50,810 nt of DNA, taken from Candidatus Daviesbacteria bacterium RIFCSPHIGHO2_02_FULL_43_12. Its GTDB lineage: Bacteria; Patescibacteriota; Microgenomatia; Daviesbacterales; UBA10151. Numbering within the stretch: position 1 is the first letter of the stretch; the number at the start of each line of letters is the position of its first letter. The notes under the pieces are model-generated. The model was not told the origin of the DNA. It did no database searches and saw only the letters and a list, made by a program, of their open reading frames with translations. This document shows positions 1,724-50,275 of this stretch, in pieces. Made by a program: the position numbers and the translations under genes. Location of the stretch: positions 2,191 to 53,000 of the forward strand of contig MFDD01000006.1 in NCBI GenBank assembly GCA_001776775.1, read 5' to 3'.

Positions 1724-1765
1724 TCGCAAATCTCAAATGTCAAATCTTGAATGTCAAATCTAGCA
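1724..1765. repeat. 7-bp-period array (TCTCAAA/TGTCAAA)
   Basis: tcgcaaa tctcaaa tgtcaaa tcttgaa tgtcaaa tctagca, between divergent genes. Confidence 0.85.
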
Positions 1766-1790
1766 AACTGTGCTATCATTAACACCTAAT

Positions 1791-1991
1791 ATGGCTGCAA
1801 AAATCCGAATTCCCGGCATTGACTTTTTGAGAGAGGTTAAGGTAGAATTGTCAAAAGTTATCTGGCCTAGCCGGCTAGAGACGGTTAAGCTTACGACAAT
1901 TGTTATTGTAGTCACAATTATCGTAGGCTTTTTTGTTTTAGGAATAGACTACGTACTAGCTTTTCTTTTGAAGCTAATAACTAGAACATAA
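1791..1991 (+). CDS. secE: Preprotein translocase subunit SecE
   Basis: FLREVKVELSKVIWPSR plus a single TM; precedes nusG. ATG at 1791 preferred over GTG at 1770, which overlaps a TGcTATCAT -10 box. Confidence 0.95.
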   Translation: MAAKIRIPGIDFLREVKVELSKVIWPSRLETVKLTTIVIVVTIIVGFFVLGIDYVLAFLLKLITRT

Positions 1992-2013
1992 GGAATGCAG
2001 ACTAAACTAATTT

Positions 2014-2859
2014 ATGACAGACGATAATACCAATTTAATACAAGATGACGTAGCTACCGACCAGGCAGATGTCACTACCATATCCGAACCTACCCAGGAT
2101 CAGGTAGAAGCGCTGAACGAAGAGACCTCAGACGATATGGCAGCCCACGAAGGTCAGGAGTCGAATGTGACTAATGAGTCGAACGAATCGGAAGCTAAGC
2201 AACAAGAAGAACTTGAACCTTCGACTCCTCCGACTCAGGCCGAAGGCCTAGACCCCTCCGACTCAAGTGAAGAACCAGCTAATAGCTCAGACGACCAACT
2301 TGCCACCGAAACGGCTACCCCGTCTGACAACCCTAACGCCCGCTGGTATATCGTACATACCGCTTCCGGGCATGAAAACCGAGTGGCCGCCGCCCTAAAA
2401 CAGCGTATCGAATCTGAACACCTGGAAGACAAGATCCTTGATGTCCTGGTCCCCACCCAGGATAAAATCGAGATCAAAAGCGGTAAAAAAGCCACTGTTA
2501 AAGAAAAGATCTTTCCTGGATATATCCTCGTTAAAATGATTTTAGACGACATCTCTTGGCTCTCTGTCCGCACAACTCCAGGGGTAACAGCTTTTGTGGG
2601 TATCGGTAATAAACCCACCCCTATTCCCGAGCATGAGGTGCGCACAATTATCAAGTTTATGACCCAAGGTGCCGCTCCTACCTTTAAAGATGTCTTTATG
2701 CCGAATGATACTGTCAAGATCGTTGACGGACCATTTACTGACTTTATCGGCAAGGTTGACTCTGTAGACAAAGAACATGGCAAGGTCCGGATATTAGTTT
2801 CTATCTTCGGACGAGAAACCCCAGTCGAGCTCGATTTTCTACAAGTCACCAAGCTTTAA
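2014..2859 (+). CDS. nusG: Transcription termination/antitermination factor NusG with long acidic N-terminal extension
   Basis: WYIVHTASGHE, KIFPGYILV, KOW motif DGPFTDFIGKV, FGRETPVEL. Confidence 0.97.
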   Translation: MTDDNTNLIQDDVATDQADVTTISEPTQDQVEALNEETSDDMAAHEGQESNVTNESNESEAKQQEELEPSTPPTQAEGLDPSDSSEEPANSSDDQLATETATPSDNPNARWYIVHTASGHENRVAAALKQRIESEHLEDKILDVLVPTQDKIEIKSGKKATVKEKIFPGYILVKMILDDISWLSVRTTPGVTAFVGIGNKPTPIPEHEVRTIIKFMTQGAAPTFKDVFMPNDTVKIVDGPFTDFIGKVDSVDKEHGKVRILVSIFGRETPVELDFLQVTKL

Positions 2860-2911
2860 ACTAATAGGTCTTCAAAATTATTCATTGCGCGGAGTGGTGT
2901 ATAATATTTAT

Positions 2912-5163: not shown

Positions 5164-5275
5164 CTCAGAGTGATGAGTTAAGAGTTCAGAGTAAAAATAA
5201 CTCTGCACTCTACATTCTACACTCTTAATTCTCGTCGCTCTTTCCTTGACTCTTGACCCTTGCCACTTGTCACTC
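5164..5275. repeat. Inverted pair of 7-bp arrays plus a third (CTTGNCN) array
   Basis: ctcagag tgatgag ttaagag ttcagag / spacer / ctctgca ctctaca ttctaca ctcttaa; then cttgact cttgacc cttgcca cttgtca. Confidence 0.85.
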
Positions 5276-5295: not shown

Positions 5296-6228
5296 ATGCT
5301 CAAGCTGCCATTTGCAATTCCCCGTTTGGGAATAACCCAAATAATTATTCTGGTCTTTACAATCCTGACGGCTATTATTCCAATCACGGTTTTCTTGCTG
5401 TCTCAAAGTTATCGCTCCAGCAGTCATGCCTCTGAGCAAATAGATCAAAGTACCGGCCCCAAGACCACATCCCATGAAGTTCCCAAGGATTCACCTATTA
5501 AAGACCTCTTAGATAACTCCGCTTCAAATCCCCAGGCTTCTCCCGGTACCGAATCCGGGTCTGCTGATGAAGGTTTAACTGGACTAACTGCTCAGATAGT
5601 CGGACCGACCCTGGATTTTATTATCCAGCTCGAAGGACGACCTGCCAGCAGCCAAGCCGCAAAAATCTTTTTAGGAATAGCTACCGGCTCAGCTCAGCTT
5701 AAACCCAATTATTTATTGTCCTTTGCCATAGACGTACCGGCCAGCGGCAGCTACCAAGGGCTTTCTATCCAAGGACTAACTGTTGGCAGTGAGTATACCG
5801 CCTACCTCAAAGGTCCTCAGCAGATTGCTACCTCTTCGGCCTTTACTGTTAGTCCGAATAAAGCCAATCTAAACCCAACTGGAAACCCTCTCTTGATGCT
5901 GACTGGGGACTTAAACGACGATAATCGTATCGACTCCTCAGACCAGACTATCGCCGATAAAGCCACTGGTTCGAATAAAACATCGGGCAACTGGAATCCG
6001 ATCGTGGACTTTAATCTTGATGGAGTGGTCAATAACTTTGACCTCAATTATGTACGTAAAAACCAGGGTCTAACCGGAGCCTCGGGAGCCTGGTATTCTA
6101 GTCCTCCCATTGCCTCAAAGTCAGCATCCCTCGATACCTCACAAGCTATTGGTTCGCCTCTGTTGGAGTCTCCGTATAAACCCCAGGGGGTCTCTGATGG
6201 GTATTGGATGTGGATGCCGAGCTTCTAA
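5296..6228 (+). CDS. Membrane-anchored dockerin type I (EF-hand pair) domain protein
   Basis: N-terminal TM; GDLNDDNRIDSSD and DFNLDGVVNNFDL calcium loops. Confidence 0.8.
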   Translation: MLKLPFAIPRLGITQIIILVFTILTAIIPITVFLLSQSYRSSSHASEQIDQSTGPKTTSHEVPKDSPIKDLLDNSASNPQASPGTESGSADEGLTGLTAQIVGPTLDFIIQLEGRPASSQAAKIFLGIATGSAQLKPNYLLSFAIDVPASGSYQGLSIQGLTVGSEYTAYLKGPQQIATSSAFTVSPNKANLNPTGNPLLMLTGDLNDDNRIDSSDQTIADKATGSNKTSGNWNPIVDFNLDGVVNNFDLNYVRKNQGLTGASGAWYSSPPIASKSASLDTSQAIGSPLLESPYKPQGVSDGYWMWMPSF

Positions 6229-6844: not shown

Positions 6845-6995
6845 AGCTTGAGAAAGTATGCATCCTGAGCGAAGTCGAAGGAATAAGTCATACCGAGGCG
6901 TTAAGTAGATCGTTAATCGTTGGTCGTTAATCGAAAAGTCGATACACGATACATGATAATCGATACACCAAAACTCCTCGAAGAGGAGTTTTTTT
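6845..6995 (+). promoter_or_regulatory. Probable L10-leader-type attenuator
   Basis: 5' UTR of rplJ with ACCGAGG element; ends in terminator hairpin aaaactcctc-gaa-gaggagttttttt directly before the ATG. Confidence 0.55.
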
Positions 6996-7526: not shown

Positions 7527-7629
7527 ATAGTTAATAGTACGTTCGCTACGCTCACTTTTGGTTCGTAGTTCATAGTAGAACTACCACGAACCACGAACTA
7601 CAAGCGTAAGCGTACTATGAACCAACACT
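7524..7629. repeat. Inverted 7-bp arrays between rplJ and rplL
   Basis: taaatag ttaatag ... gttcgta gttcata gtag / ctaccac gaaccac gaactac ... tactatg aaccaac. Confidence 0.8.
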
Positions 7630-10920: not shown

Positions 10921-11172
10921 ATGTTAGATAAAAATGATTTAAACCAGATTAAAGGACTTCTGGAGCAACAAACCGAGAACTTTGACCAAAAGTTAGAGAA
11001 ACAATCTGCCTCAATAGACAAGCAATTTAAGTCAATGAAGCAGGAGATTCTAAGAGCCATAAGAAAGAGCGAGAATGCGATTATCGCCTATTTCGATGAT
11101 GCTTATTTTGAGTTGAGAAAAAGGGTAGAAAGAATCGAAGAGTATTTAAAATTGCCTCCTCTAACTGGTTAG
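10921..11172 (+). CDS. Small coiled-coil hypothetical protein
   Basis: Heptad pattern, LRKRVERIEE; TGcTATATT 6 nt before the ATG. Confidence 0.7.
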   Translation: MLDKNDLNQIKGLLEQQTENFDQKLEKQSASIDKQFKSMKQEILRAIRKSENAIIAYFDDAYFELRKRVERIEEYLKLPPLTG

Positions 11173-11871
11173 TACCGACAAAACAAACTTCAGCAAACTT
11201 AGCTGCCGTTTGATCCTCCAGGGCTGAACCATTAATCTAAACAACCACTCTAAACCTATCTTCCTCATCCACAGAGGAGCCCGGGGCACGATTCCAGCAA
11301 TATAATCAAATGCTCCACCCACCCCCATAAAAACTTTAGCCTGAACGCTCTGCAGATGCCGAACAATCCACTTTTCCTGCTTAATATGCCCCAAAGCCAC
11401 AAACAGGATATCTGTCTGGGGAAGCTTACTTAAATCTTGAGTCGTTACCCCGGAATATAATACCTCTCCTCCATTCTCGGAAAAACTTATCTTTAAACCT
11501 GGGAAGCGGGCTTGTAACACTTCAGCGCACTTCTTAGCGACCCTGTCTTGCCCTCCCAAAAACCCAACCAACCAGCCGCTTTGGGCTGCCTGGCGACAGA
11601 GCTGTTCCATAAAGTCCACTCCTGGAACAATATTCTGTACACCTCCCAACCTTAAACCAACCCCATCGGGAATACTCAAGTCAGCTTTATTTAAAATCTC
11701 CCTAAATTCCGGGTCTTTTTGAGCAGACATCACGAACTCGGGGTTGGGAGTGACAACGTATCGCTTGTCGCTTGTCGCTTGTCGCTTGTCGGCTAGCCAG
11801 GAGGAGACAAGCTCTAAAGCCTCCGGCATAGACAGATCGTCAATTTTTACTCCCAGAACTGTTTTTATCAT
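11161..11871 (-). CDS. WecB/TagA/CpsF family glycosyltransferase
   Basis: VVTPNPE, PDGVG, KQEKWI, GVGGAFD, RAP, GLEWLFRL. Confidence 0.93.
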   Translation of the reverse strand: MIKTVLGVKIDDLSMPEALELVSSWLADKRQATSDKRYVVTPNPEFVMSAQKDPEFREILNKADLSIPDGVGLRLGGVQNIVPGVDFMEQLCRQAAQSGWLVGFLGGQDRVAKKCAEVLQARFPGLKISFSENGGEVLYSGVTTQDLSKLPQTDILFVALGHIKQEKWIVRHLQSVQAKVFMGVGGAFDYIAGIVPRAPLWMRKIGLEWLFRLMVQPWRIKRQLSLLKFVLSVLTS

Positions 11872-11886
11872 GTAGTTACTTAATAC

Positions 11887-13056
11887 TTAATACTTAATAC
11901 TTTCTAATACATTAAGTGTTTCCCTGGCTGCTTTTTCCCAACTAAACTTTTTTAGCTGCTCATGACCCTCTTTTATTAACTTCACTCTGAATTCTACATT
12001 CTGCATTCTCATCATACCCTCCAGAATACTCTCTAAGCTATATGGATCAACTAAAATAGCCGCGTTTCCGGCAACTTCTGGCATTGAAGAGATATTCGAA
12101 GTTAACACCGGGCAGTTACTCCCAAAGGCCTCCAGAATTGGCAGTCCAAACCCTTCAAAAAGAGACGGAAATGCCAAGGCTAAGGCATTTTCTAAAAGGA
12201 TTTTTTTCTCTTCGTCAGTAATAAATCCTGTAAATAAAACTCTATCAGAAATCCCCATGGCTTGAGGCTGATGGTAGATCTTAGCTGACTGCCAACCTTT
12301 GTTACCAGCAAGAACAAGTTTTAAAGAGTCGTCAGTCTCCAGACTCCAGTTTTCAGACTTTTTTGCTTTTTCTCTGATAGCTGATAGCTGATGACTGAAA
12401 GCTTCGATTAATCTCTCCAAATTCTTACGGGGTTGGATGGTACCTATAAATAAGAAATATTTTTGTCTTTCAAGTCCAAATTTTTGCATAACTCCCTCCT
12501 CCTTGTCACTTGTCTCTTGGTACTTGTCTCTAGTCGGTCCACCTTCATAGATTACCGTCACTTTTTTTGGGTCGATCCCAACTCTATCTACGAGATCCTG
12601 CTTTGTGGCCTGGGACACAGCGATCAAATGAGTTGCCGATTTAAGCTGCAGCTTAGTAATCGCTTTGAGGTAGAGGGCTTGTTTAAGTTGATGCAAACTT
12701 GGCAAGTACTCCGCTCCCAGATCGTGGATTGTCATCACAGTCTTTAACCCTGGTTTACGAAATAGAGGCAGGGTGTGGGAAGGGACAAACAGTAGATCCA
12801 GATTGTCAGTAAAGGTGTGTATCGCCAAGCCAACCTGAGTCCATAACCGAGGAAAATTAATTAATTTAAACTTAAAATTCTTTGGCCAATCTGATCTGTG
12901 AACTGTGAGCTGTGAACTGCGAACCGGCCTTAGATAGACGATATAAGTATTCTTTTTGTCAATCTCTGCTAAATGTTTTAGTAACTGATATGAATATTCC
13001 TCTGTCCCTGTCCGCCTTTCGATAAAAGCTCTTGACCCATCAATACCAATAACCAT
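11887..13056 (-). CDS. Glycosyltransferase family 4
   Basis: TIHDL, GTIQPRKN, PSLFEGFGLPILEA, FSWEKAA. Confidence 0.93.
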   Translation of the reverse strand: MVIGIDGSRAFIERRTGTEEYSYQLLKHLAEIDKKNTYIVYLRPVRSSQLTVHRSDWPKNFKFKLINFPRLWTQVGLAIHTFTDNLDLLFVPSHTLPLFRKPGLKTVMTIHDLGAEYLPSLHQLKQALYLKAITKLQLKSATHLIAVSQATKQDLVDRVGIDPKKVTVIYEGGPTRDKYQETSDKEEGVMQKFGLERQKYFLFIGTIQPRKNLERLIEAFSHQLSAIREKAKKSENWSLETDDSLKLVLAGNKGWQSAKIYHQPQAMGISDRVLFTGFITDEEKKILLENALALAFPSLFEGFGLPILEAFGSNCPVLTSNISSMPEVAGNAAILVDPYSLESILEGMMRMQNVEFRVKLIKEGHEQLKKFSWEKAARETLNVLESIKY

Positions 13057-13444: not shown

Positions 13445-16400
13445 ATGAATAAATTGCTTGGCAAGAGCATCTCGCCCAAGCAGACGGACCATTCGGCCGC
13501 ATCAAACGCGGCACGATCAAACGTGCCTGCCGAGTTTGACTCGGTGGCTTCATCTGTGGTGGCCAAACCAACCCGGGGTTTAATTTCTATTGGTAAAGCA
13601 GCAAAGTATCTGGGGGTATCGATTGACACTCTGCGTAACTGGGAGGAGCAGAAAAAGTTAGTCTCCATTAGGACGGCCGGGGGCAGTAGGAGATATAGGT
13701 TAACAGAATTAAAAAAGTTTGCGATTGCTACTCCTAAACTTGCCAGAAAAATAGAGCAGCACAGTCACCCTAACTTTGAAGATCTCAAGCCAATCTCAAA
13801 AGCTAAAATCCCTGCATCTATATATACTAATGAGCAGCAGGGCGAACATCACTTGGGTTACGCCCCCTCTCCGATCGCTCGGGCGATTAAACAGTTTAAC
13901 CCCAGCTCCATCTTGCCATTGCCACCACCCTTTGTTATCAAGGATAAACCCCGACACCAAGTTGCGAATCATCTTAAGAAAGCTTTACAAATGGGACTAG
14001 GGGGAATTGTTGCAGCCGGATTTATTGTCACCGCCATTATAGTTGGCAGTTACTTCATTAATCCCAGACAAACAAACCAACATTTTGCCCACTCCTCTGC
14101 CCTGTCTCCTTTTAATTCCCTTGCTAAGGGATACCTGTCTATGATACTGCCCCAGAAAGCTAGGGAGTTAGGTTTAAAGAAGTCGTCAGTCGTCAGCCCT
14201 CAGTCGTCAGATAATCTGATAGCTGACAGCGAAGCGAGTCTGAAAGCTGAAAACTCTTCCAACGTCCTGGCAATCATTAACCAGAGACCCGGAACCTTAA
14301 ACATTAACGCCAATACTGCCATCAACGGAACCTTATTGATCGAAGGTGGTGTTCGGGTTACCGGAACAGACGTCAGTGGCTTGCTCCAAAGCATTACCGG
14401 CGGAGATAATGTTACGATTGTCGGTGCCGACTCCCCCAACCCTACTATCTCTGTAACCCTTCCCTCTAATTTAGTTAATTCTTTTGCTACATCTAGTACC
14501 GGAACAAAAGTATCCGGGGATATTATCTTGGGTTCCGGATTATCCCTGGCTACTGCAACTAAAACTATCTCTGTCTCCACCCCAACCCTCTCTTCGGTCA
14601 GAAGTGCCGGTGGATGTTCTGGCTGTATTACTGATGATGATGTCGATAGCGCTCTGACTATCTCATCTTCCGGATCAGTTGCGGTCGGAGCATTATCCTC
14701 GGCTGTAACTATTGCAAAGGGAGGAACGGCACTGACCTCATATACAACTGGCGATATTCTTTATGCTAACTCCTCAGGGACACTCTCTAAATTGGCCATT
14801 GGAACATCTGGCCAATCTTTGGTCGTCACCTCTGGTCTACCTGCCTGGTCATCATCCGGTGCCGGAGTAACCTCCCTAAACAGCTTAACCGGAGAATTAA
14901 CGATAGCGGGGACTTCTAATCAAATCTCGGTGGCAGCATCCTCCACCACGGTGACACTATCTCTACCTTCGACTGTTACTACCACCAACTTAAATGCCTC
15001 GTCTGCCTTGCAGTTAAACGGCACCAATATTAATACCGGTGGAACTCTTTCTAATGTTGCCTACCTGGACACAGCCCAGACCTTTAGCGCAGCGCAGACC
15101 AACTCTACTGCCGGGGCTGCCTCTACCCCAGCCCAGAAACTAACAGGAGCCTGGTATACCGGAGGATCCGGCACAACCACCAAACCTCAACTACTGATTG
15201 AACCAAGCGGAACCACCACCAATGCCTGGTCAACCTCCGGCACTGGTATTGGAGTCAATGCCGCAGCTACCTTTGCCGGAAATTTAATTGATCTGCAGCA
15301 AGCCGCTAACTCCATTTTTTCAATTACCTCAGTCAGTAGTGCTGTTAATGGCTTTAACTTCCTGGCTGGGGCAACCGGATCAGGTGTAGCTATTAGTGCC
15401 GACGGTGGGGGGTCTGATACCAACATCCCTTTAAGTATTGATGCTAAGGGCTCTGGCTTAGTCAAGATTGCGGCTACCTCTACCGGCAATGTTGAGCTAG
15501 CCGGAGGGTCTGCAGCAACCGGATGTACGATCGCCAACTCCACCGGAGCCCTGACTTGTGCCGGGGATATTACCGGTGGCTCAACCGGAACAAGCGGCTA
15601 CTGGACAAGATCAGGAACAACCCTTTCTCCGGCTACAGCCGGGGATGCGATCACTACCTCAGGTAATCTTTCAACCTCAGGATCCGGCACATTATCGATT
15701 GCCGGAACAGCCACTTTTTCATCGACCATTAACACTAATACCTTTAGCTCAACTGCCTTAACCTTTGCCTCAGGCGCAACTACTGCGGTTATCTCGCCGG
15801 CTACAGCCGGAACACATATTGAAGTAGACTCCGGCGGTGGGACAGGGAATATTTTGCTGGGTGGAGGTTCTGGTTCGACCGGGTGTACTGTCTCTGATTC
15901 AACTGGAAACCTAACTTGTGCCGGATCTATTACCGGAGGATCAGAATCTAATCAAGGGTACTGGTCAAGATCGGGAACTACCCTTTCGCCTGTCACCACC
16001 GGGGATGCGATCACTACCTCAGGGAATATTTCTACATCAGGCTCTGGTGCAGTTACCTCAGCCGGGCTCTTAACCGGACAACTTGGTTTAACTATAACCG
16101 GTGCAACCACCAGTATTAATGCCTCCTCTAACTTTGCCACTAATATTAACACCGGCACCTCAACCGGAACTATCTCACTTGGTAACTCAAGCGCCGGAGC
16201 GATTGCCATATCCGGTTCTTCAACTTTCGGAGTAACGACTACTACATCAGCCCAAACTTTCACCAGTGCGGTTGTTTCCGGAACTACTACCTCTTCAGCT
16301 TTTGTCTTTACTGATTCAAGCTTAACTACTGGAACTGGATTGTATCTTGTCTCCTCATCTCTGACTTCTGGAAAACTGGCTCATATTGCTCCGACCTTTG

Positions 16401-19400
16401 CCGGAGCTGGAGTAACAGGCTACGGAGCCTATCTTGAAGGAGCTGATTCAACAACTTCCGCCAACACCGACTACCAACTTTACTCTACTCTAGCTTTATC
16501 AGGCAATGCTGCCAAAACTGGAGTGGGTATATATTCAACAGTAACCAGCTCTTCTACCACCGGAGATACATTAATAGGATTAGACTTGGCTACAAGTGCA
16601 ACAGGTGCCCTAGCTGCCACTCAAACTAGGACAATCTATGGTTTAAGGTCTCAGCCTGCATCAACCGGAGCTTCAAATAACTCTGATGATACATTAAATC
16701 TGTATGGCTCATACTTGGCTCCAACCTCTACCCTAGCCTTGGCTGGTACGACTAATGTTTATGGACAATACATCTCTAATATTGCGACCCATAACGCTGA
16801 TGCCGGAACTGTTAACTCCTATGGACTATATATTGCCAACGGCACCTCCTCTACCAACGGAACTAATACCAAATACGGACTTTATATTGCCACCCCGACC
16901 GGAGCCGATACTAATTATGCGCTCTATATCGCGGGAGGAAATGCCACTTTAGCTGACGGAGCCCTGCTTGACCTCTCGGCGATTAACCTCTCCTCAACTA
17001 CTGAAGGGTTATTGCTGCCTCAAAACGCCACCGCCTGTTCCAGCGCTACCGCTGAGGGACAAATCTGCTGGGACACCTCAACTGATACGCTATATATCGG
17101 TAAGAGTGGTTCAACCGCGGCTGTTGGCCAGGGTGATATCACTGCAGTTGGATCAATGACCTCGGGCGCCGCTTTTGCCGACTCCGGAGCTGATGATGAC
17201 TGGCTGGGACTTGGCTCCGGAGCAGGAAGAATCGAATTTGACGACCAAACTACCGATGAAGTGAATATCCTTTCAGCCAATGTCGGAATTGGTACTCAAA
17301 CTCCTGGAGGTTCCCTGGATGTCTCAGCTGCTAAGTCGCTAACTCCCTCTTTAACTGGAGCCTATCTTTCTTTTTCGGCCTCAACCCTAACTGACTCCGG
17401 TACCGCTGCCTCCGGGACACTGGCTAATGCAGCTTTTAACTCGATTGCCGCCCCGACCCTGGCTGCTACCAACACCTCAGTAGTGACAGACCATGCCTAT
17501 ACTCTATACCTGGCCGGACCCCCAACTGCCGGTACCAATGAAACAATTAATAATAGCTACGCCTTAGGAGTTAATGGTAAAACCCAGCTGGCTAATGCAG
17601 TTGAACTGTCCGGTTCAACCGATGCCACAACTACTGTTGGCACCCGGGTCGAGGGGGCCTGGTCAGTTACTAATCTAGCCGCCGGCACTAATACCTATAA
17701 TTACCGCCGGGCCATTACTGTCACTAATAACGACTCCTCCACTGCCCTGCCAACCAATTATGAGCTCACTATTACCTTAACCACTGGAGCCAGCTCACAA
17801 TCATCTGATGTTTGTGCAACCACCAAAAACGACTCCTCTGACCTGATTGTGGCGAAATTAACTGGCCCGACTGAGATTGCCAGAAATATTACCCGTACCT
17901 CGTGCGCTGCCGGGTCTCAACAGATTGTGGTTAAATTCTTAAATCAAGCTTCAATTGCCGCCTCTGGCACAGCTACCTATTATCTATATTATGGCAACTC
18001 CGGCAGCTCAAACACTGCTCCCACAACCTACTCAACCTCAGCAGTTGTCCTGGATAGTGCAGATAACGTTGGTTCGTGGACCAGTAATGATTCAACTAAC
18101 TTTGCTATTTCCCAGGAGACGACCATCAAACAAGAAGGGACAGGGTCAATCAAGGCAGTTGCTGTTCAAAACTGCTCAACTTGCGGAGATATCGGGGTAT
18201 TCGCAACCACCAACCAGGGACAATTACCGACAACGCGGGCGTATTTTAATACTACGGAAAGTGTTGTAATTGGTGGAACAGGTTATCTCTACTTTATAGG
18301 AGGTGACTGGGCACCAGTTCTTTCAACTGTGTATAAATCTACCATCACTACAGCTGGAGATCTCGGCTCATTTGTAACAACCTCCCAGGCACAGTTACCC
18401 CTTGGCCTATCCTACATGGCCTCAAATATCGTTGATGTTGGTGGTACAAATTATATCTATATTATCGGTGGCTACAACCCAACAACCTATTCAAGCGTAT
18501 ATAAGGCTCAAATTGGCTCAACAGGAAATATTGGAGCCTTTGCTACTACCTCACAAGGACAAATGCTTGAACTTATTTGGCAAAACGCATCTACCGTTGC
18601 AAGCATTAGCGGGACATCATATATCTATGTACTAGGAGATGCTGACGGAAATACTTCAGCCGTCTATAAAGGAATGATTAATCCAGCCAATGGTGATGTC
18701 GGGTCTTTTGCTACCACCTCACAAGGACAACTAAAGGTTGCCACTGTATTTGGAGACGCTACAACCGTCACTATTGGAGGAACTAATTATGTGTATATAG
18801 TAGGAGGAAATACTATTTCCACTGTTTATAAAGCTCAAATCGATACTTCAGCAAACATAGGTTCATTTAATTCTACCTCCCAGGGACAGCTGCCGGCAGT
18901 GATATACAATCCTGCAGTTAATCCTTTTACCATTGGCGGCACGAATTATCTATATGTCTCTGGTGGAGAAGTCTCAACTGTTTATAGAGCAACTCTTGAT
19001 GGTTCGGGTAATGTCGGTTCTTTTGTGACAACTGGGCAAGCACAATTTCCCGCAGCCATTAGAAGCCTGTCTAACATAGTCACTCTGGGTACTTCAAGTT
19101 ACTTCTACGGACTGGGGAATGGCAGTGCATCTGTTGTATATAAAGGAAAAATTACCACTACCTATGATCCATCCGGAGATGTCGGGGCATTTTCTACCAC
19201 ATCTCAAGGACAACTACTCGCTACTCGGCTTCAACTAGGCGGAGCATTGGTGGCTGTCGGCGGGACGAATTATATCTATGCAATCGGAGGGGATTCTGCT
19301 TCAACTGTTTATAAAGCCCAGATTGGATCATCAGGCAATGTCGGCTCATTTGATACTACCTCCCAGGGACAGCTACCGGCCAATATCGAACAAATTGAGA

Positions 19401-27257: not shown

Positions 27258-27757
27258 ACAAACTATCTATTCACCCCAGTCAGCGCGGCCACTTTGCCTT
27301 CTTTGTATTTCAGGCAATGAAGAAAAATAAAAGAATATGGGTGGTTACCAATGATTTAGGTTATAAAATGTGGGATCAGGTCAGGGAGAAATTCCCGGAG
27401 CGGTTTATCAACGCAGGAGCAGCCGAGCAGGCGATGCTCGATTTGGCGGTCGGGCTGGCTTTAGAGGGTAAAATTCCGATTGTCTATTCTATCACCAGCT
27501 TCCTGCTTTTTCGACCCTTTGAAACAATCAAAAACTACATTGATCACGAAAAGATTCCCGTTAAGCTAATCGGTGGTGGTCGAGACAGAGACTATCTGAT
27601 TGACGGACCCTCTCACTGGGCTAGCGAGGACAAACAGATCATGAAGATATTTAAAAATATTCATGTTGCCTGGCCGGAAAGTGTCGGAGAGATCGAGAAG
27701 CTGGTTAAAAAGATGCTGGTGGATCATAAACCCTGGTACCTCAACCTAAGAAGATGA
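27254..27757 (+). CDS. Transketolase-like pyrimidine-binding subunit (no C-terminal domain)
   Basis: PERFINAGAAEQ, RPFE, GPSH, YLNLR; ATGA-coupled to the previous gene. Confidence 0.88.
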   Translation: MNKLSIHPSQRGHFAFFVFQAMKKNKRIWVVTNDLGYKMWDQVREKFPERFINAGAAEQAMLDLAVGLALEGKIPIVYSITSFLLFRPFETIKNYIDHEKIPVKLIGGGRDRDYLIDGPSHWASEDKQIMKIFKNIHVAWPESVGEIEKLVKKMLVDHKPWYLNLRR

Positions 27758-28720: not shown

Positions 28721-28782
28721 ATCCAGAATATAGCACAAGCTAGTTCGTAGTTCATAGTAGATAGTTCGTGGGTAGTATTAGT

Positions 28783-29535
28783 TTACCGTTTTTGCTGGCG
28801 GTGCCAAAGCTCGATTAGAGAAAATAGTTTAAGATCTAAATTAAACGGCAGCAGCCGGATAGCGTGTAGCATAAAAAAAGCCCAATATGGATAATAGTAG
28901 GCTGGAGCTTTTTCGGTGATTGCTTCTTCCACACCAATGACTACTTGATCCAGGCTCAGCTGGAACGGCGCTGAGCTCTTAAACGGACTCATCCCCCCCT
29001 TGACCGGACCAAGTGAGACTGTTGTAAACTCAAAAGATGAGTTTTTATATCGCTGATAAAAGGCTTCAAAAGCTATCGACAGAGCTGCCTTACTAGAGCT
29101 ATACCCCACTCCTTCGATACTACTACCCCGCAGTCTAGCGATTGTGGAGATAGCGATAAAGTGGGCGGAGTCTAACTTTTTAAGTAATATCTCCACTCCT
29201 TTCATAACCGAGTAAAAATTAATTTGAAAATGTTGCTCAAGCAAGGCGAAGTTAAAATTAGGATGTAAATCATCTTCGAAGATCGCGGCATTAAAAATAA
29301 TCACCTCCGGCACAAAGTTTTGTCTATCCATTTTCGATATTACTTTCGACCAGGCTAATGGCGAACCGATGTCGACACTGATGTAATCAAAATACTCTTT
29401 ACCAACTTGCTTTTGAAGTTTCTCTAACAGTTTCTCTCTTCTGGCCAAACCAAAAACCCGATGTCCCTTGCCTACCAAGCTAACAACTAACTCCCAACCT
29501 ATGCCTGATGAAACTCCGGTGATTAAGATATTCAT
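28783..29535 (-). CDS. Short-chain dehydrogenase/reductase
   Basis: TGVSSGIG, NAA, YSSSK. Confidence 0.9.
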   Translation of the reverse strand: MNILITGVSSGIGWELVVSLVGKGHRVFGLARREKLLEKLQKQVGKEYFDYISVDIGSPLAWSKVISKMDRQNFVPEVIIFNAAIFEDDLHPNFNFALLEQHFQINFYSVMKGVEILLKKLDSAHFIAISTIARLRGSSIEGVGYSSSKAALSIAFEAFYQRYKNSSFEFTTVSLGPVKGGMSPFKSSAPFQLSLDQVVIGVEEAITEKAPAYYYPYWAFFMLHAIRLLPFNLDLKLFSLIELWHRQQKR

Positions 29536-43199: not shown

Positions 43200-43311
43200 A
43201 TCACTAGTTTATAGTTTACGGTTCATAGTTCATAGTAGCTAAAAAGTGAGTTTACAGGATATCCTTTGTCTGACTATTAACCATCGACTATTAACCATGA
43301 ACTATTTTGTG

Positions 43312-43384: not shown

Positions 43385-43433
43385 TGGGAGTATTCTAGCA
43401 TTTATCACTTCTTAAGGATATAATTTGACAGCT

Positions 43434-43508: not shown

Positions 43509-43861
43509 CTTATAGAACAGATAATCATTAAGGCGAATTAGATAGAGAAAATCACAAAAATTAATCTTTGTATAAATAGATATCTAAAAAATTAAGAGAT
43601 AAAAAGATTAGGCTTACACATCAACCTAATCTCCAGAGTAATAAATGTATACTAACTACTTAATTTTGGCGAAAAGTTTGATCACAAAATAGACTTTAGT
43701 TTTGGATATTTAAAACTTTTTTTTGGGGAGGTGATATATTTAGAAATAGTGGGGAAATTTAGCACTGAGTTTCTTCGTTTGCTAGAATATTGTTCGAGTG
43801 CAACCGAGAACTACTTGAGCTATTTTACTTCTCGCTAATCGCTCGAAGAATATTTCGGGGA

Positions 43862-44404: not shown

Positions 44405-44472
44405 AGTCTTCAGCTTTCAGTCTTCAGCTTTCAGATTAAGTAGTCTGATGACTGCTGTCTGACGACTGACAA

Positions 44473-45526: not shown

Positions 45527-47236
45527 CTACATCCTTTCTGGGGCTTCAATCCCCAACAGATATAGGCCAGATTTGATTGTATCAGTAACCCTTTCTGTTA
45601 GTTCTAGCCTAAAAGCTTCCTTGTCAGATTTGAGAATAGGACAGCGCTGATAAAAAAGATTAAAGGATTTTGCCAGGTCTAACAGATAAAAACAGAGGGT
45701 AGTTGAGCTAAGTTCTTGTGATGCTTTTTGAACTATAAGTGGGTAGTAAGTTAGTAGTCTGAGTACCTCCCGTTCTTCTTCTTGAAGATCTATGCCTTCC
45801 AGCTTTTCTTGACCCTTGACCTTTGACCCTTGACTCTGATTCCTTAACACCGACTGAGCCCTGGCATAGGTATACTGCACATAGGGACCAGAATCTCCCT
45901 CCAAGGATACCGACTTATCTATATCAAAAGATATATCAGTGGATGAAGCAAACTTTAACATATAAAACTTAACCGCCCCAACTGTCACCTGTTCGACAAT
46001 CTTCTCACCGTCTTCGCCTTTAATACTAGTTAGATCTGCGACTTTAGCTTTGACCATCTCCAGCAACTGCTCGGCAGTGACCACATTACCTTTACGCGAA
46101 GACATCTTGCCAGTTGTTAAGCTGACCAAGCCGTAAGATAGGTGCTTTTTCCTGCCTTTAAACCGCTCGTCAACCAACTCGATAGCCTTTAAAACCACTT
46201 CAAAATACCCCGATTGTTCAGATCCGACGATATGTAAGGCGATATCAAAGGGAAAAGCCTGTTCTTCAGCGAAAGCCAACCCTACCTCTTTGGCTTCATA
46301 GGTCGGATTACCAGCAGAAGTGATGAATACCCGACTATGTAGGCCATACTTCTCACCTGGAAAGATCACCGCTCCTTGACTCTCTTCAAAAACTCGACCG
46401 ACATTTTGCAAAACAATCTCTTTACCTCGCTTTTCGACCTCAGACTCCAGAAAAGAGTTATCAAAACTAGTCCCCATGCGGGTATAGAGTGTTTTTAAAT
46501 ACTCCAAGCTCCAGTTGGTGACTAGCTTCCAGAGTTCTACATACTCTAGGGAGCGCTGATAGATCTTTTTATTTAGGGTGTCTATCTCGGTTTTTTTAGC
46601 TGGGTCTTCCTCATAAGCTGAGTTGGCATGGACATAGGCCAGACCAAGAAATTTGAGTCTTTCGACTAAGCTTTTTTGCTTAGCCTCTTCAAACTGGTCT
46701 TGAAGGTTTATCACTCCCCAGAGAGTCTTTGCTAGAGGCAACCCTATATCTGAGCTGTAGGTAGCCCGGTAAACTTCATGACCGGCATTTTCCAGGAATC
46801 TCGCTAAAGCTTCTCCGAAGATCAGGTTCCTTAAATGGCCAATATGAAATTCCTTACTTAAGTTGGGTCCAGCGTATTCAACAAAATATTTTAGCTTATG
46901 TCCTCTACTATCCTTTATTTGCCGTTTGTCATCTACCATTCCTGAACGCAGTATCTGGTCTTTGATAAAAAAATTAATAAATCCAGGCCCCGCTACTTCG
47001 ACCCTGTCTACATACCGTGAACCGTGAACCGTGAACTCCTGACTAATAGCATTAGCAATCTCTTTAGGTGATTGATAGCGTTTACCGGCATCTTGATTAG
47101 ATAGCTGTAACGCTATATTGGTGGAGAAATCCCCAAACTTAGAGTTCTCGGGAAAGCTTAATTCTATCTTTTTAGCCGAAAATCCCAATTTTTCAACTGC
47201 TTTCTGTAAATCTTGCTCAAGTTGGAGGTAGATCAT
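45527..47236 (-). CDS. argS: Arginine--tRNA ligase
   Basis: FGDFSTNIA, GPGFINF, HIGH, KMSSRKG, GPYVQYTYAR, LGIEAPERM; start MIYLQ preferred (alternative 47314). Confidence 0.96.
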   Translation of the reverse strand: MIYLQLEQDLQKAVEKLGFSAKKIELSFPENSKFGDFSTNIALQLSNQDAGKRYQSPKEIANAISQEFTVHGSRYVDRVEVAGPGFINFFIKDQILRSGMVDDKRQIKDSRGHKLKYFVEYAGPNLSKEFHIGHLRNLIFGEALARFLENAGHEVYRATYSSDIGLPLAKTLWGVINLQDQFEEAKQKSLVERLKFLGLAYVHANSAYEEDPAKKTEIDTLNKKIYQRSLEYVELWKLVTNWSLEYLKTLYTRMGTSFDNSFLESEVEKRGKEIVLQNVGRVFEESQGAVIFPGEKYGLHSRVFITSAGNPTYEAKEVGLAFAEEQAFPFDIALHIVGSEQSGYFEVVLKAIELVDERFKGRKKHLSYGLVSLTTGKMSSRKGNVVTAEQLLEMVKAKVADLTSIKGEDGEKIVEQVTVGAVKFYMLKFASSTDISFDIDKSVSLEGDSGPYVQYTYARAQSVLRNQSQGSKVKGQEKLEGIDLQEEEREVLRLLTYYPLIVQKASQELSSTTLCFYLLDLAKSFNLFYQRCPILKSDKEAFRLELTERVTDTIKSGLYLLGIEAPERM

Positions 47237-47421
47237 AGTAGTTTTAAGTTTATCATAAATTGAGTCAACCACCTTCTCTGCAAAAGGGTCTGTTGGTAGA
47301 AAATTCTGCTGCATCTATATCCAGCGATGAATCAATTTAATTAATTATGTTAACCAAAACACTATCCAGACTATTCAAAACATATCGTAACATATCACGA
47401 ATTAATTGATAACTAATTTGG

Positions 47422-48552
47422 TTATACGATTATGTGCATAGCTGTCTCAACTAACTTTTTTAGGAACCCTGCTGTTTGCTTTAAATGTCTAAGTTGTAAC
47501 TTTTCCGAGTTTGAATGAGCATTGCTGCCTCCCCTTGAGACAGAGATCGTCGGGTAGCCTTTTCCGCTCAGATTATTGGCATCACTAGTGGAGAATGATT
47601 CTTTGAAGATTGGCTTCAGTCCTACCGATAGACTAGTTTGATAGCATAGTTTTGCTATTGCACTATTTTTATCCCCGTTGAAGGGTGGTATATAGCTAGA
47701 CTTCTTAATCTTAAATTTTATCTGGGTGTTAAATCGCTTGCCGATCTTTTGACTAATCTGACTAATTTTTTCTTCGACTGACTTTATAGTTTGATCCTTG
47801 AATGCCCTAATCTCGCCAGTAAGTGTTACTAAATCACACACTACATTCGTTGCTTCGCCTCCATGAACCTGTCCTATATTCAAGGTCCAACCTTGTTGAC
47901 TATTTTTACCTATTGGGAGGCTGTTTATCAGTGATGCAGATATCTTGACTGCATCTTTTCCTTTGTCATATGACTTTGCGGCGTGAGAGGCTAGCCCATG
48001 AACTTCGATTATGAAATTTTCATAGCCCAATGATTTATACACAAATACCCCTGGTAAATCAGAGCTGTCCAGATTAAAAACATATTTTATACTTGCTTTA
48101 TCAAACTTAAAAAATGAGGAACCCATTACCCCTGCTTCTTCGTGGGTAGTAAAGAAGAACAGCAAATTACAACTTAATTTACCTATGTCTAAGGATTCTG
48201 CTAACGCCAAGAGGCTGACGATCCCAGCTTTATTATCTGCTCCTAGAATTGTCTTACCCGTACTTGTAAACACTTTACCGTCAAACTTAACTTTTACTTG
48301 TTCCCCTAGCTTTTGGACTGTATCCATATGAGCACTAAAAACCAGAGTTTTATATTCAGGACTTACCTCTAAATAAGCATAGATATTTCCAGAGTTACTT
48401 TGATTCTTTTTTCCAGAGTCGTCTGTCCAAACTTTCCATCCAAGATCATTCATCTTGTTTGTAATCCAACCAGCGATATCTTTTTCATACCCGCTAGGCG
48501 AGCTTATCTCAGCTGCTTCTGTAAATAGTTTCACTAAATCTTTATTGATCAT
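47422..48552 (-). CDS. M20/M25/M40 metallopeptidase (peptidase T-like)
   Basis: SAHMDTV, LGADNKAG, HEE, GLASHA, SDAN, AHSNSE. Confidence 0.9.
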   Translation of the reverse strand: MINKDLVKLFTEAAEISSPSGYEKDIAGWITNKMNDLGWKVWTDDSGKKNQSNSGNIYAYLEVSPEYKTLVFSAHMDTVQKLGEQVKVKFDGKVFTSTGKTILGADNKAGIVSLLALAESLDIGKLSCNLLFFFTTHEEAGVMGSSFFKFDKASIKYVFNLDSSDLPGVFVYKSLGYENFIIEVHGLASHAAKSYDKGKDAVKISASLINSLPIGKNSQQGWTLNIGQVHGGEATNVVCDLVTLTGEIRAFKDQTIKSVEEKISQISQKIGKRFNTQIKFKIKKSSYIPPFNGDKNSAIAKLCYQTSLSVGLKPIFKESFSTSDANNLSGKGYPTISVSRGGSNAHSNSEKLQLRHLKQTAGFLKKLVETAMHIIV

Positions 48553-49912
48553 TTTTAAAGACTCCCTGGGCTTTCTTGATCAAGTGAGCTGCCTCGTAAG
48601 GATCGTCTTTGCCTGAGATGGCTACAGCGTAAAAACTATCTTCATATCCAGAATCCAAAACTGAACCGTTGAAAACAAATATGCCTTCAGCATTAGGGCC
48701 AGTTTTAGTAATCAGTAGTTTGTTATCCTGAAGAACCTCGATAACATGCTCGATCTTTGTACCTGGAGCAACCTTTAGTTTGGAAACCACCCAACCAATA
48801 CCATATTGACCCTCCCTTAATGCTAGTATCCAGGCTTTAGAGATTGTTGAAGCTCCTGGTCTGGTGTTTTCGTCATTACAAAGTGGAGCTCCAACTGGAA
48901 AACCTAGTTTTTCGCTGATATGAGGAGGCACGATCAACATCCCCATGGTGTGAGGTCCCCAGGCTTGGTGTTTGCTATAACCCTTGGCTAGCTTGTGACC
49001 TACTGCTAGAATCGGGTCTAAGTATTTTTTGTCAATCGGTTCTGCTCCAATTGCCCCTAGGGCACTTTGACCCTCCAACAAGTGAGCTTGTGCGCTGGTA
49101 AATTTATAGGATCCATCAAAATCGATAAAAGTGGCGATACTTACGCTCGTAGTATCCGGTACCCAACCTTGAACAACGCCACCTTCTTCGGGCGTAAATT
49201 CGTTGGGGAGATATTGACTGGGATGACCCCTAACGATATCTGCTATTGAGCTAATGAGGTGTCCCATACCTCCCGTAGAGTGGCTTACCTTAACCACTAC
49301 CTTCTCATATCCAGCCTGGGCCAGATTCAAGACAGCATCTTTGAGTTGACCCGGATGATAAATAGGTACTGTCATCGGAGTATAAATCCCACATTCACCG
49401 GCAAACTCTGATAACCCCACTTTTGTACCTGCCCAATTAGCAAACTTAGAGTTTCCATAATAAGGGACTCCAAGTTTCTGAGCTATGGCTTCCATCTCTT
49501 CTGTTTGATTAAAACCATATAGACTCATTGAAGACTCACCAGCAGATTTTTTGGCTACTTCCTCTGCCAAACTAGACAAAAACCCAGGGTTTGCTAGTAC
49601 TATCTGGTCGAGCGAGCCTCCTTTTATTTTATTGCCAGGGATCATCCAATGGGGATTATGATCTCCAAAGAGTTTGTTTCTATAGTGAGCTTCAGTTTTA
49701 GGCAAAGCCACCCTACTTATAAAGATCCCGGGATAGTTACCCATCGCCTCTCCAGCTTGCCTATGCTCATATAACATCTCTCCTTCAATTCCAGTGAGAA
49801 TCTTCGTATTCTTCTCTCCCTGAGAGGGTAGAACCACCAGATGTTTACCTCTTAATAAAGAGGTGTCAAATTCGGCATATTTTCCCAAATCAATCGGACT
49901 ATATTTTTCCAT
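48542..49912 (-). CDS. Putative ATP-grasp ligase (PGM1-like)
   Basis: GTK..., VVVKVSHSTGGMG, VVQGWV, CNDENTR (ExNxR-like). Confidence 0.6.
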   Translation of the reverse strand: MEKYSPIDLGKYAEFDTSLLRGKHLVVLPSQGEKNTKILTGIEGEMLYEHRQAGEAMGNYPGIFISRVALPKTEAHYRNKLFGDHNPHWMIPGNKIKGGSLDQIVLANPGFLSSLAEEVAKKSAGESSMSLYGFNQTEEMEAIAQKLGVPYYGNSKFANWAGTKVGLSEFAGECGIYTPMTVPIYHPGQLKDAVLNLAQAGYEKVVVKVSHSTGGMGHLISSIADIVRGHPSQYLPNEFTPEEGGVVQGWVPDTTSVSIATFIDFDGSYKFTSAQAHLLEGQSALGAIGAEPIDKKYLDPILAVGHKLAKGYSKHQAWGPHTMGMLIVPPHISEKLGFPVGAPLCNDENTRPGASTISKAWILALREGQYGIGWVVSKLKVAPGTKIEHVIEVLQDNKLLITKTGPNAEGIFVFNGSVLDSGYEDSFYAVAISGKDDPYEAAHLIKKAQGVFKNDQ

Positions 49913-49937
49913 ATTTTTCTCTCTGGGCTTTTACAAC

Positions 49938-50275
49938 TAAAAAGCCCTTGTAAATCCACCAATTACGATGAACTTACAAGGGCTCTCTTTCGAATTCAGA
50001 ATTCTTGAATTCAGATTTAAGAATTTACATTCTGCATTCTGAACTCTACATTCTGCATTCTTTAAGGGCGGTACCACCTTGTCTTAATTTCCAAAAAAAT
50101 CCTCCGCGGTTGCGAAGGAGTTCTAAAAGAAATTATCTCTTTCAGCGCTCCGTTACCGACACGCCTGACTCATTTTACAGTTTGTCTTCTGTCTTGGTCT
50201 TCCCAGGGGGTTTATCCAAGCTGCTTGTCTACTGCGGTAGACTTAAAATGCATTTCACTAACCTATTAAGTTGTG
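49938..50275 (-). promoter_or_regulatory. T-box riboswitch leader with intrinsic terminator
   Basis: Minus strand ACAAGG-TGGTACC-GCCC (50066-50082) can pair with downstream CCTTGT; terminator agcccttgtaa...ttacaagggct-tttt (49938-49984); TGgTATAAT promoter at the comEC stop. Confidence 0.85.

Follow-up and report, generated by a model that had tools for sequence, protein, structure and literature searches.

A genome-wide population of seven-nucleotide repeat arrays in Candidatus Daviesbacteria, with close neighbours usually in inverted pairs

Introduction

Tandem repeats with a unit of seven nucleotides have been reported from several bacterial groups, and the question of why bacteria should favour units of this length has been open since such repeats were described. 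In the work of Mrazek, Guo and Shah (2007), as cited in PMC4679880 and PMC4692102, heptanucleotide long simple sequence repeats (LSSRs) are in excess whatever the sequence of their unit and are mostly intergenic, and a polymerase register of ~7 nt is offered as a hypothesis for their cause. The subject of the present analysis is a 50,810-nt stretch of DNA (the window) from Candidatus Daviesbacteria bacterium RIFCSPHIGHO2_02_FULL_43_12, a small groundwater bacterium, positions 2191–53000 of contig C6 (MFDD01000006.1) in a genome, G000, of 1.12 Mb and 15 contigs (C-numbers). The window carries short arrays of heptamers whose unit differs from place to place, and these arrays belong to a genome-wide population of ~170 modules.

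Short extragenic palindromes in many copies are familiar from the repetitive extragenic palindromic (REP) and REPIN elements with their RAYT transposases, which have no 7-nt period. Among heptamer repeats, the short tandemly repeated repetitive (STRR) sequences or contiguous heptamers of the cyanobacteria Calothrix and Nostoc are described as having several units per genome, often near promoters or start codons, with some inverted pairs (PMC4692102; 10.1101/2022.06.06.494920), and inverted heptamer pairs are described in Xanthomonas also (PMC4692102). In Beggiatoaceae, Cyanobacteria and Bacteroidetes, direct repeats with TAACTGA as nearly the exclusive unit occur in sets of 2–6 copies, mostly a few nucleotides upstream of starts without a canonical ribosome-binding site, one inverted set being reported (PMC4679880). 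The Rickettsia palindromic elements (RPEs), as described in PMC10969869, are small and lie in frame in unrelated housekeeping genes, to which they add a conserved peptide.

We read the Daviesbacteria arrays, with a probability of about one half, as selfish or neutral palindromic heptamer modules that would be created and homogenised by misalignment in a 7-nt register, their arms kept alike by template switching and their survival filtered by selection.

An excess at period 7

Among the repeat periods of the genome, only 7 is enriched. Tandem Repeats Finder (TRF), run at a score of 30 that admits weak rows, gives 567 rows for the whole genome, of which 208 have period 7, against 30–68 for each of periods 6 and 8–12; the window has 37 rows, 22 of them at period 7, four at period 14 and the other 11 at periods 8–12. 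Exact arrays of at least three copies number 30 at period 7, against none in an order-3 Markov simulation, and 16 of these 30 reach at least four copies. Periods 1–5 are at or below expectation by the same count, with three arrays at period 6 and none or one at each of periods 8–15. Similarly, exact self-match runs of at least 14 occur 30 times at lag 7, five times at lag 14, three times at lag 6 and at most once at any other lag from 2 to 15, three order-3 Markov simulations giving none. Under a codon-preserving shuffle, period-7 runs of at least 10 in coding sequences fall from 43 to 0.8, and shuffling of the intergenic sequence takes them from 19 to 0.6, with other periods near expectation. 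In the manner of the Mrazek LSSRs, therefore, tandem 7-nt repeats exceed chance and heptamers dominate among units of 5–11 nt. The plain lag-7 autocorrelation is barely raised (0.2570 against ~0.2545 at neighbouring lags that are not multiples of 3), such that the signal is that of a population of local arrays and not of a genome-wide periodicity. Homopolymers of at least 9 nt are strongly avoided across the genome (5 against 169 simulated).

An initial annotation of the window had proposed a family of period-7 arrays at 20 coordinates (43205 and 43270 counted apart). The enrichment of period 7 holds under Markov and codon-preserving controls, if only slightly in the autocorrelation. A TRF row lies within 5 nt of 17 of the 20 coordinates, and the six units quoted are all rotations or strands of TRF consensus units. 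Of the others, 7524 and 13066 have no TRF row and only ~2 units by eye, the row nearest to 7524 being 7583–7598, and 12328 has no row of its own, being a degenerate arm that stands opposite the row at 12374–12403.

The weak rows that TRF admits, and three of 20 earlier sites with only ~2 units, are what might be said for chance, base composition or an assembly artefact as the source of the arrays. We give such a source practically no credence. Markov, codon-preserving and mononucleotide shuffles yield ~0 where 30–43 are seen, the sequence is identical in contigs of several sequencing runs, and the trait recurs in independently assembled Daviesbacteria genomes; shuffles and independent assemblies together refute it.

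Inverted pairs and hairpins

The arrays are typically 3–5 units long, and those that lie close together tend to be inverted copies of one another. Indeed, 23 of 29 adjacent pairs at most 80 nt apart are reverse-complement-like and one is direct-like, against 13.8% and 15.2%, respectively, for random pairs of the same units; inverted pairing above chance, which the initial annotation had expected, is thereby borne out. Eighteen of the 23 inverted pairs are intergenic, four lie within genes and one is mixed. A reverse-complement match of at least 75% is found within 120 nt of 41 of 202 arrays, as against 1 of 202 at random places.

Seven of the eight modules of the window fold with z scores of -1.9 to -5.1, into helices of 4–6 bp with small internal loops every 7 nt. 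Across the genome, an array is present in 44 of 360 gaps of 20–200 nt between co-directional genes, and folding energies show more structure in these gaps than in the others, at -0.197 and -0.251 kcal/mol per nt against -0.132. In ~30 of the 44, as judged by eye from the fold strings and not by computation, a single interrupted hairpin takes up the gap, beginning at the stop codon of the upstream gene and ending a few nucleotides short of the next start. Within inverted pairs the G/T-rich arm comes first in 11, the A/C-rich arm in three, and nine are ambiguous, numbers that are too small for use.

Two roles for these hairpins were considered and set aside. Selection at the RNA level through G–U pairs finds no support either way, since sense and antisense folds of array gaps are equally stable (14 vs 18; 7 vs 4). 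Intrinsic terminators were rejected in that no T-run follows the array hairpins on inspection of the folds and arrays are rare in convergent gaps. An Rfam search of the window returned only two tRNAs, with no family over any array.

Position relative to genes

Genes were called within this analysis (1,148 genes, 91% coding), and start codons are therefore approximate. The 202 merged arrays divide into 95 that are intergenic and 107 that lie in genes, which amounts to ~1 per kb of intergenic DNA (95 in ~92 kb) and 0.1 per kb of genic DNA (107 in 1,028 kb), a ~9-fold difference. By comparison, 35 of 255 arrays of periods 6 and 8–13 are intergenic. Among arrays in co-directional gaps, 22 of 76 end within 8 nt of a start codon, and 44 lie nearer the start against 31 nearer the stop, with starts approximate as above. 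The perfect arrays, which are hence young, are distributed differently again: 21 of the 30 are in coding sequence, five at gene edges and four intergenic.

The hairpins and their placement may also be taken to mean that the arrays have a function and are read in a 7-nt register, either as intercistronic RNA hairpins (for processing, stability or the coupling of stop to start) or as sites for an oligomerising protein with a 4–5-nt core every 7 nt. This is a minority possibility, less than probable in our view yet one to be taken seriously. It would make sense of the 23 inverted pairs among 29, of the folding of seven of eight window modules and the greater structure of array-bearing gaps, of the ~30 gaps of 44 that appear by eye as a single stop-to-start hairpin, and of the 22 of 76 arrays that stop just short of a start codon while convergent gaps hold so few. 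Heptamer runs by start codons have, moreover, been discussed as regulators in Beggiatoaceae (PMC4679880) and Nostoc (10.1101/2022.06.06.494920). Several results run counter to it. Arrays within 30 nt upstream of starts have no bias of orientation relative to the downstream gene (24 vs 20), a count that also disposes of an A-/C-rich translation leader, the sense strand being A+C-rich in 24 and G+T-rich in 20. The sense strand has no G–U advantage, no T-run follows the hairpins by inspection, half of the arrays lie inside genes, and the >100 units could not all fit one reader protein. The stop-to-start span is itself forced: orthologous gaps measure 0–10 nt, and any intergenic insert must therefore reach from stop to start.

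The density of arrays varies by contig, from 5.3 per 10 kb in C6 to 0.9 in C2 (382 kb) and 0 in C5, for which chromosomal domains or binning are possible reasons. Separately from the arrays, a TATAAT-like -10 box is seen at -12..-7 upstream of 1,134 called starts in G000 (T 0.41, A 0.46 ... T 0.42); the 5-mers most enriched in the last 20 nt before starts are GTATA, TATAA and ATAAT, and AAGGA precedes 54 genes only. This pattern suggests many leaderless mRNAs and weak use of Shine–Dalgarno sequences.

Unit sequences and unit families

The 208 period-7 TRF rows contain 102 canonical units, of which GAACTGT is the commonest. When placed in their best rotation and strand, the units carry 4.91 bits, against 3.69 ± 0.14 (maximum 3.98) for 20 composition-matched sets of random heptamers, and share the consensus Y-Y-N-T-K-A-R. 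Variability within arrays, taken by aligned position, runs from 0.058 to 0.128, a weak effect with a 2-fold range only. Position matrices by family were set aside, since a limit of 2 mismatches placed arrays in more than one family (78+36+82+69+55 exceeds 202). Merging of arrays at most 80 nt apart reduces the 202 to 173 modules, which a BLAST comparison groups into clusters of 12, 10, 10, 7, 5, 4, 3, 3, 3, 2, 2 and 2, leaving 110 of the 173 as singletons. Unit choice is, in other words, not arbitrary, being subject to a loose consensus and to a few unit families. The notion of a constant period without a constant sequence is to this extent half right: the 102 units, and arrays at one site that differ in unit, bear it out, and the consensus and the families qualify it. 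The shared consensus also speaks for sites read in a 7-nt register.

The arrays of the window

The features of the window are as follows, with array coordinates in window positions from TRF, gene families from Pfam and hairpin z scores taken against shuffles. Glycosyltransferase families 2 and 4 are abbreviated GT2 and GT4, open reading frame as ORF and arginyl-tRNA synthetase as ArgRS.

1723..1761: single array of ATCTCAA, 5.6 copies (also readable at period 14), set 16 nt upstream of where ORF 1291..1707 (minus strand) starts; no fold, z = 0.0.
5167..5232: inverted pair, AGAGTTA at 5167–5192 and ACTCTAC at 5200–5225/5232, in the gap that follows the gene for ribosomal protein L1 (4328..5095); hairpin of -24.2 kcal/mol with z -4.30, equalled by 0 of 200 shuffles.
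5244..5262: array of CCTTGAC, 2.7 copies, 33 nt upstream of ORF 5296..6228 (plus strand).
6909..6968: inverted pair, ATCGTTA at 6909–6933 and CGATACA at 6940–6968, upstream of the L10 gene (6996..7526); z -2.02.
7583..7598: array of ACCACGA, 2.3 copies, within a long hairpin that fills the L10–L7/L12 gap (7527–7629; C6 9717–9819), the gap folding at -34.2 kcal/mol.
11761..11791: perfect array of TCGCTTG, 4.4 copies (100% matches), in a WecG/TagA-family glycosyltransferase gene (11161..11871, minus strand).
11877..11902: perfect array of TACTTAA, 3.7 copies, across a 15-nt gene gap, encoding the final codons and stop of the GT4 gene.
11986..12009: array of TCTGCAT, 3.4 copies, in the GT4 gene (11887..13056, minus strand).
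12328..12403 (minus strand): in-frame palindromic module of the GT4 gene, a degenerate arm at ~12328–12360 and a CTGATAG arm of 4.3 copies at 12374–12403; fold z -1.90; a loop of variable length among orthologues (alignment).
12502..12528: array of CTTGTCA, 3.9 copies, in a GT4 loop with no net change of length against most orthologues (alignment).
12892..12924: array of TGAACTG, 4.7 copies, in an N-terminal GT4 loop that is 5–7 residues longer than in most orthologues.
14176..14262 (plus strand): copy of the family B element, its TCAG/CTGA cores spaced at 7 nt, in frame in a 3141-aa ORF (13445..22870); z -2.69.
28741..28767: single array of TAGTTCA, 3.9 copies, in the 44-nt gap between an SDR gene (28783..29535, minus strand) and a GT2 gene (27746..28738, minus strand), 2 nt from the start codon; no fold (E 0.0).
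43205..43306: array of TAGTTCA, 4.6 copies, at 43205–43236, 5 nt upstream of the sortase gene start, in a long-range pair with a period-14 array at 43272–43306 that adjoins tRNA-Arg; z -2.65.
44405..44472 (minus strand): palindromic module of the family B type, -24.9 kcal/mol, z -2.94, forming the entire 68-nt gap from the metallophosphoesterase stop codon to the NDK start codon.
45808..45834: array of CTTGACC, 3.9 copies, in a length-variable loop of ArgRS (45527..47314, minus strand; 20-sequence alignment).
47014..47036: perfect array of ACCGTGA, 3.3 copies, in an N-terminal ArgRS loop 2 residues longer than in relatives (alignment).
49992..50061: inverted pair, GAATTCA at 49992–50025 and CATTCTG at 50028–50061, in a 369-nt gap; -23.8 kcal/mol, z -5.10.

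Between genes, then, the modules of the window occupy the L1/L10/L7-L12 cluster, the junction of two glycosyltransferase genes, the metallophosphoesterase–ndk gap and the surroundings of the sortase gene and tRNA-Arg; inside genes they are found in the WecG-family and GT4 glycosyltransferases, the 3141-aa ORF and ArgRS.

Some of the neighbouring sequence is of interest in its own right. Just after the heptamer hairpin upstream of L10 there is a separate, canonical stem followed by seven T (~6970–6995), ending at the L10 ATG, which has no Rfam match and may be an attenuator like the L10 leader. The L7/L12 ORF (7630–8139) encodes 169 aa, with ~45 extra N-terminal residues and two 12-nt repeats (7654–7677 and 7732–7759). 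The 3141-aa ORF (13445–22870, plus strand) has a MerR-type helix–turn–helix near its N-terminus (residues 48–84) and a bacterial SH3 domain at its C-terminus, the remainder having no Pfam match. For the NDK ORF (43862–44404) the Pfam match is split into two segments, suggestive of an insert. The divergent tRNA-Arg(CCT) and tRNA-Pro(CGG) genes (43311–43509) share a 662-nt gap with two arrays.

In-frame copies and the dispersed family B

About half of the population is coding, and many of these copies occur in frame within the loops of essential enzymes, ArgRS and leucyl-tRNA synthetase among them. Both ArgRS arrays are in loops of variable length among 20 relatives, and the GT4 arrays occupy three loops where other genomes hold other insertions.

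One set of modules, family B, behaves differently from the singletons in that it is dispersed. One of its arms repeats TCAG and the facing arm CTGA, in each case at a spacing of 7 nt. A 17-nt core with up to 3 mismatches has 20 matches, and family B is in frame in eight unrelated proteins, read in one frame of the element and giving a peptide such as SSVVSRQSSESLKADSEASLK, with 2 of 10 contexts in another frame. In leucyl-tRNA synthetase (LeuRS), the family B insertion adds 12 residues relative to most orthologues. A 22-nt core with up to 2 mismatches is present in seven copies in each of G000 and a second genome, G154 (reversed control, 0). Among 301 genomes from the class six contain it, every one from the family of genomes to which the window belongs (five of the other 19 members, against none of 281 outside). 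Exact matches to the core number seven in metagenome contigs and 0 in viral contigs. When nine copies taken from two genomes are aligned, each of the 32 columns without variation falls within a TCAG/CTGA core or immediately next to one, and three spacer positions vary, an arrangement that also favours the functional reading. Several intergenic copies start with TAG and end with CTA, which is only suggestive.

Family B is, then, a dispersed, in-frame insertion element like a MITE (a transposable element of the miniature inverted-repeat type), limited to part of one family of genomes: it alone among the modules combines many copies of conserved sequence with terminal inverted repeats, and it resembles the RPEs in its in-frame insertion into unrelated ORFs with a conserved peptide. 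The view that the arrays are not a single MITE is therefore only partly right, holding for the 110 of 173 modules that are singletons and failing for family B, which is MITE-like and polymorphic for insertion.

It is improbable, in our assessment, that this account extends to the population as a whole, such that the modules would be ordinary MITEs moved by a transposase, with terminal inverted repeats whose heptamer period is incidental and to which slippage later adds a few units. The seven copies in each of two genomes of one family, the in-frame copies in eight proteins with the 12 residues added to LeuRS, the TAG...CTA ends and the alignment of family B modules in one relative (locus L038) to gaps in another (L052) all favour it, as does the precedent of in-frame palindromic elements in Rickettsia (PMC10969869). 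Set against these are the 110 modules that cluster with no other, the free variation at spacers of copies in one genome, which are not near-identical, the absence of the core from viral contigs by exact match, and the lack of a legible target-site duplication at the L038/L052 sites. Neither Y1_Tnp nor DDE_3, the two transposase families tried, was found in G000. Moreover, MITEs would leave both the perfect arrays of unrelated units and the rewriting of units at one site unexplained.

Relatives and turnover

The comparative loci (L-numbers) span ~20 kb around the ArgRS gene and not whole genomes. By ArgRS, the closest named relatives are metagenome-assembled genomes labelled Candidatus Daviesbacteria, to which the heptamer-array trait is common. 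The TRF density of period-7 rows, per 100 kb, is 42 for the Daviesbacteria-like loci (16 loci), 20 for other loci of the candidate phyla radiation (CPR; 10 loci) and 7.3 for non-CPR loci (51 loci), period 9 being the leading one in these last. Exact period-7 arrays of at least three copies number 19 in 267 kb of Daviesbacteria (10 of 16 loci), one in 169 kb of other CPR and two in 908 kb of non-CPR loci. The last two, the only ones in those 908 kb, are in Geomonas (L060, L061), where perfect heptamer arrays of 26 and 74 nt with related units occupy one shared site, at about position 8200, upstream of ArgRS.

Gene order is conserved, and junctions can therefore be compared among genomes. A heptamer hairpin is present at orthologous junction 8|7 in 5 of 14 genomes, at 14|13 in 3 of 11 and at 13|12 in 1 of 11; its units are not the same from genome to genome, and many of the remaining genomes have the two genes directly adjoining or overlapping. 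Such sporadic presence counts against the hairpins as functional elements, and the retention of periodicity at orthologous sites where the unit has changed counts for them. The comparison of orthologous loci had been proposed at the outset, and this is its outcome: sporadic arrays at junctions, and different units at one place and length.

Two loops of LeuRS are instructive in this respect. In loop one, four relatives (L037, L038, L040 and L041), whose LeuRS are 54–79% identical, each have a 45-nt segment of equal length built from different heptamers, and G000 has a fifth unit together with a family B insert. What loop two holds depends on the genome: an array of family A, one of a further unit that is perfect, family B elements, a different, non-heptamer element, or nothing. 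L043, which was counted at the LeuRS site only through a run of N, is left out. A second, non-heptamer insertion element, in frame and with a peptide like GSEATPESKEDSGQARMT, is seen in L052 and L055 in both LeuRS loops where L038 has heptamer modules.

The pair L038 and L052, 90.6% identical over ~22 kb, gives the closest view of turnover, with 14 modules in the one and three in the other. Some eight family B modules of L038 stand opposite gaps in L052, which is insertion polymorphism; the flanks of filled and empty sites align poorly, and no target-site duplication is legible. One non-coding array upstream of LeuRS keeps its length and flanks, but all of its copies have a unit changed at 4 of 7 positions. 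Periodicity that is kept while the sequence is replaced requires ongoing homogenisation or replacement. Turnover is thus fast, with modules present or absent and units rewritten at one site between genomes ~90% identical. Several in-frame indels of 9–15 nt between the same two loci are small GC-rich palindromes, apparently another class of tiny hairpin inserts.

Assemblies of metagenome reads are interrupted at perfect arrays, contigs both ending and accumulating at 11761–11791; depth spikes and loose ends are seen at 11761–11791, 12368–12403 and 14181. Both arise from repeat copies elsewhere, at least partly within the genome, and letters inserted at 14198 match a copy on C11.

Candidate machinery

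Profile searches were made of G000, which is 100% complete by marker genes, with controls that matched in known genomes. No match to the transposases Y1_Tnp (PF01797) or DDE_3 (PF13358) was obtained, these being the transposase families searched; the PF01797 control matched in 6 of 14 genomes, and the RAYT (Y1) component of a REP system is thus not found in G000. HutP (PF09021) and the cold-shock domain CSD (PF00313) likewise have no match, and MutS_V and the MutL family were not found. The sole reverse transcriptase match of the genome is on C5, a contig without a period-7 array, and the enzyme is therefore not linked to the arrays.

Binding in a 7-nt register has possible analogues in the omega ribbon–helix–helix repressor, which has heptad operators, and in HutP with its UAG-N4 sites. 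The initial annotation had invoked a dedicated generating mechanism or a binding code in a 7-bp register, for which no enzyme or protein came to light, HutP, CSD, Y1_Tnp and DDE_3 all being without a match; the same result for HutP and the cold-shock domains tells against functional RNA or protein-binding elements. A bolder form of the idea gives Daviesbacteria a ‘writer’ or ‘reader’ devoted to the 7-nt register (a nuclease, an oligomerising binding protein, or an activity of polymerase or repair type), which would make and maintain core-plus-spacer arrays with inverted partners, rewrite units in place even in LeuRS and spread modules without a classical transposase. We hold this to be doubtful.

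Origin of the modules

Slippage and template switching in a 7-nt register are the explanation that we prefer. Misalignment in replication or repair, with this register, would create, resize and homogenise the arrays; template switching inside the hairpin would keep its two arms alike; and at least one family, B, would additionally spread as a unit of ~70–100 nt. Selection would be a filter only, under which modules persist in gaps that precede a gene start and, where free of stop codons, in frame in tolerant surface loops of proteins. A sequence-specific function would not be needed. What we infer, in other words, is the generator and the neutrality of its products, whereas the period specificity, the anatomy and location of the arrays, the in-frame insertions, the fast turnover and the distribution among lineages are observed. 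In favour of this reading are the enrichment of period 7 alone across 102 units, the 30 perfect arrays, the higher density between genes, the sporadic occupation of orthologous junctions, the differences between L038 and L052, the LeuRS segments of different heptamers, the lack of a bias in orientation or folding, the failure to find MutS/MutL and the presence of the trait in relatives.

Ordinary slippage would not suffice, as the initial annotation had maintained, since periods 1–6 and 8–15 are not enriched, homopolymers are avoided and MutS/MutL were not found. The genome is not generally slippage-prone, and a general slippage therefore does not explain an excess at 7 alone.

Several points weigh against the preferred reading. 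Short periods are not enriched despite the failure to find MutS/MutL, so that the 7-nt register becomes an extra assumption. Slippage is never seen directly: metagenome contigs from four runs (X6, X8, X9 and X11) have identical sequence with no indels at arrays, contigs being prone to drop rare variants, and among the indels that separate L038 from L052, the 14 with clean flanks include no length of 7, 14 or 21 nt, the other 57 of the 71 falling in stretches that cannot be aligned. The rewriting of an array at the same length within an essential gene is hard to achieve by single steps of ±7 nt. The invariant family B cores every 7 nt look like constraint on a motif, to which the loose unit consensus (4.91 against 3.69 bits) may be added. 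Junctions and loops are hit recurrently across several genera, and convergent gaps hold only 2 of 94 intergenic arrays where ~8 are expected from their share of the intergenic bases (8,014 of 92,466).

Whichever explanation prevails, the lineage offers a clean test bed, combining a tiny genome in which MutS/MutL were not found with a single enriched period, dozens of perfect arrays and close relatives that differ in the arrays they carry and the units they use. Both the polymerase-register idea and its rival, a binding code, are directly testable in it. The in-frame copies mean that the loops of essential enzymes (ArgRS, LeuRS and glycosyltransferases) are continually remodelled by repeat DNA, which bears on the annotation, alignment and phylogeny of CPR proteins, as contig breaks at arrays bear on assembly.

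Comparison with known systems

A literature search within one literature collection found no paper tying heptamer repeats to the candidate phyla radiation, Patescibacteria, Microgenomates or Daviesbacteria. Heptanucleotide repeats of the simple-sequence or STRR type are themselves already known. In particular, a heptamer excess that is independent of unit sequence is not new, being in print together with the hypothesis of slippage in a polymerase register (Mrazek 2007, via PMC4679880 and PMC4692102).

The modules of REP systems are, like those of Daviesbacteria, short palindromes; here, however, Y1/RAYT was not found and sequences are not conserved across modules.

The RPEs are likened to family B by description. 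They are ~150 bp long and not built from heptamers (PMC10969869), whereas the Daviesbacteria elements are ~70–100 nt, with an internal period of 7 nt and a variable number of copies per arm.

With regard to TAACTGA, the commonest Daviesbacteria unit, GAACTGT, matches at 5 of 7 positions in register. The two systems differ in that Daviesbacteria have >100 units and mainly inverted pairs, and the rotation class of TAACTGA is outside their 40 commonest units.

The likeness to the cyanobacterial STRRs, which is one of description, consists in heptamer arrays, multiple units and some inverted pairs. The host here is of a different phylum and not a heterocystous cyanobacterium, the cyanobacterial arrays are often much longer, with 26 copies quoted (PMC4692102), and in-frame coding copies are not among the features for which those arrays are described in the accounts cited.

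The closest resemblance is to the Mrazek LSSRs, as they are cited in the two sources above, with which the Daviesbacteria arrays share both a tandem 7-nt excess irrespective of unit and the same idea of a slippage register. They differ in belonging to a CPR lineage, in being short, with close neighbours usually in inverted pairs, in lying in frame in genes in about half of cases, aminoacyl-tRNA synthetases included, in having fixed-core families of which one is dispersed, and in a turnover that is documented between genomes ~90% identical. What appears to be new is accordingly the lineage, the combination of inverted pairing with short heptamer arms, the families built of core and spacer, the in-frame colonisation of essential genes and the rewriting of units at the same site between close relatives.

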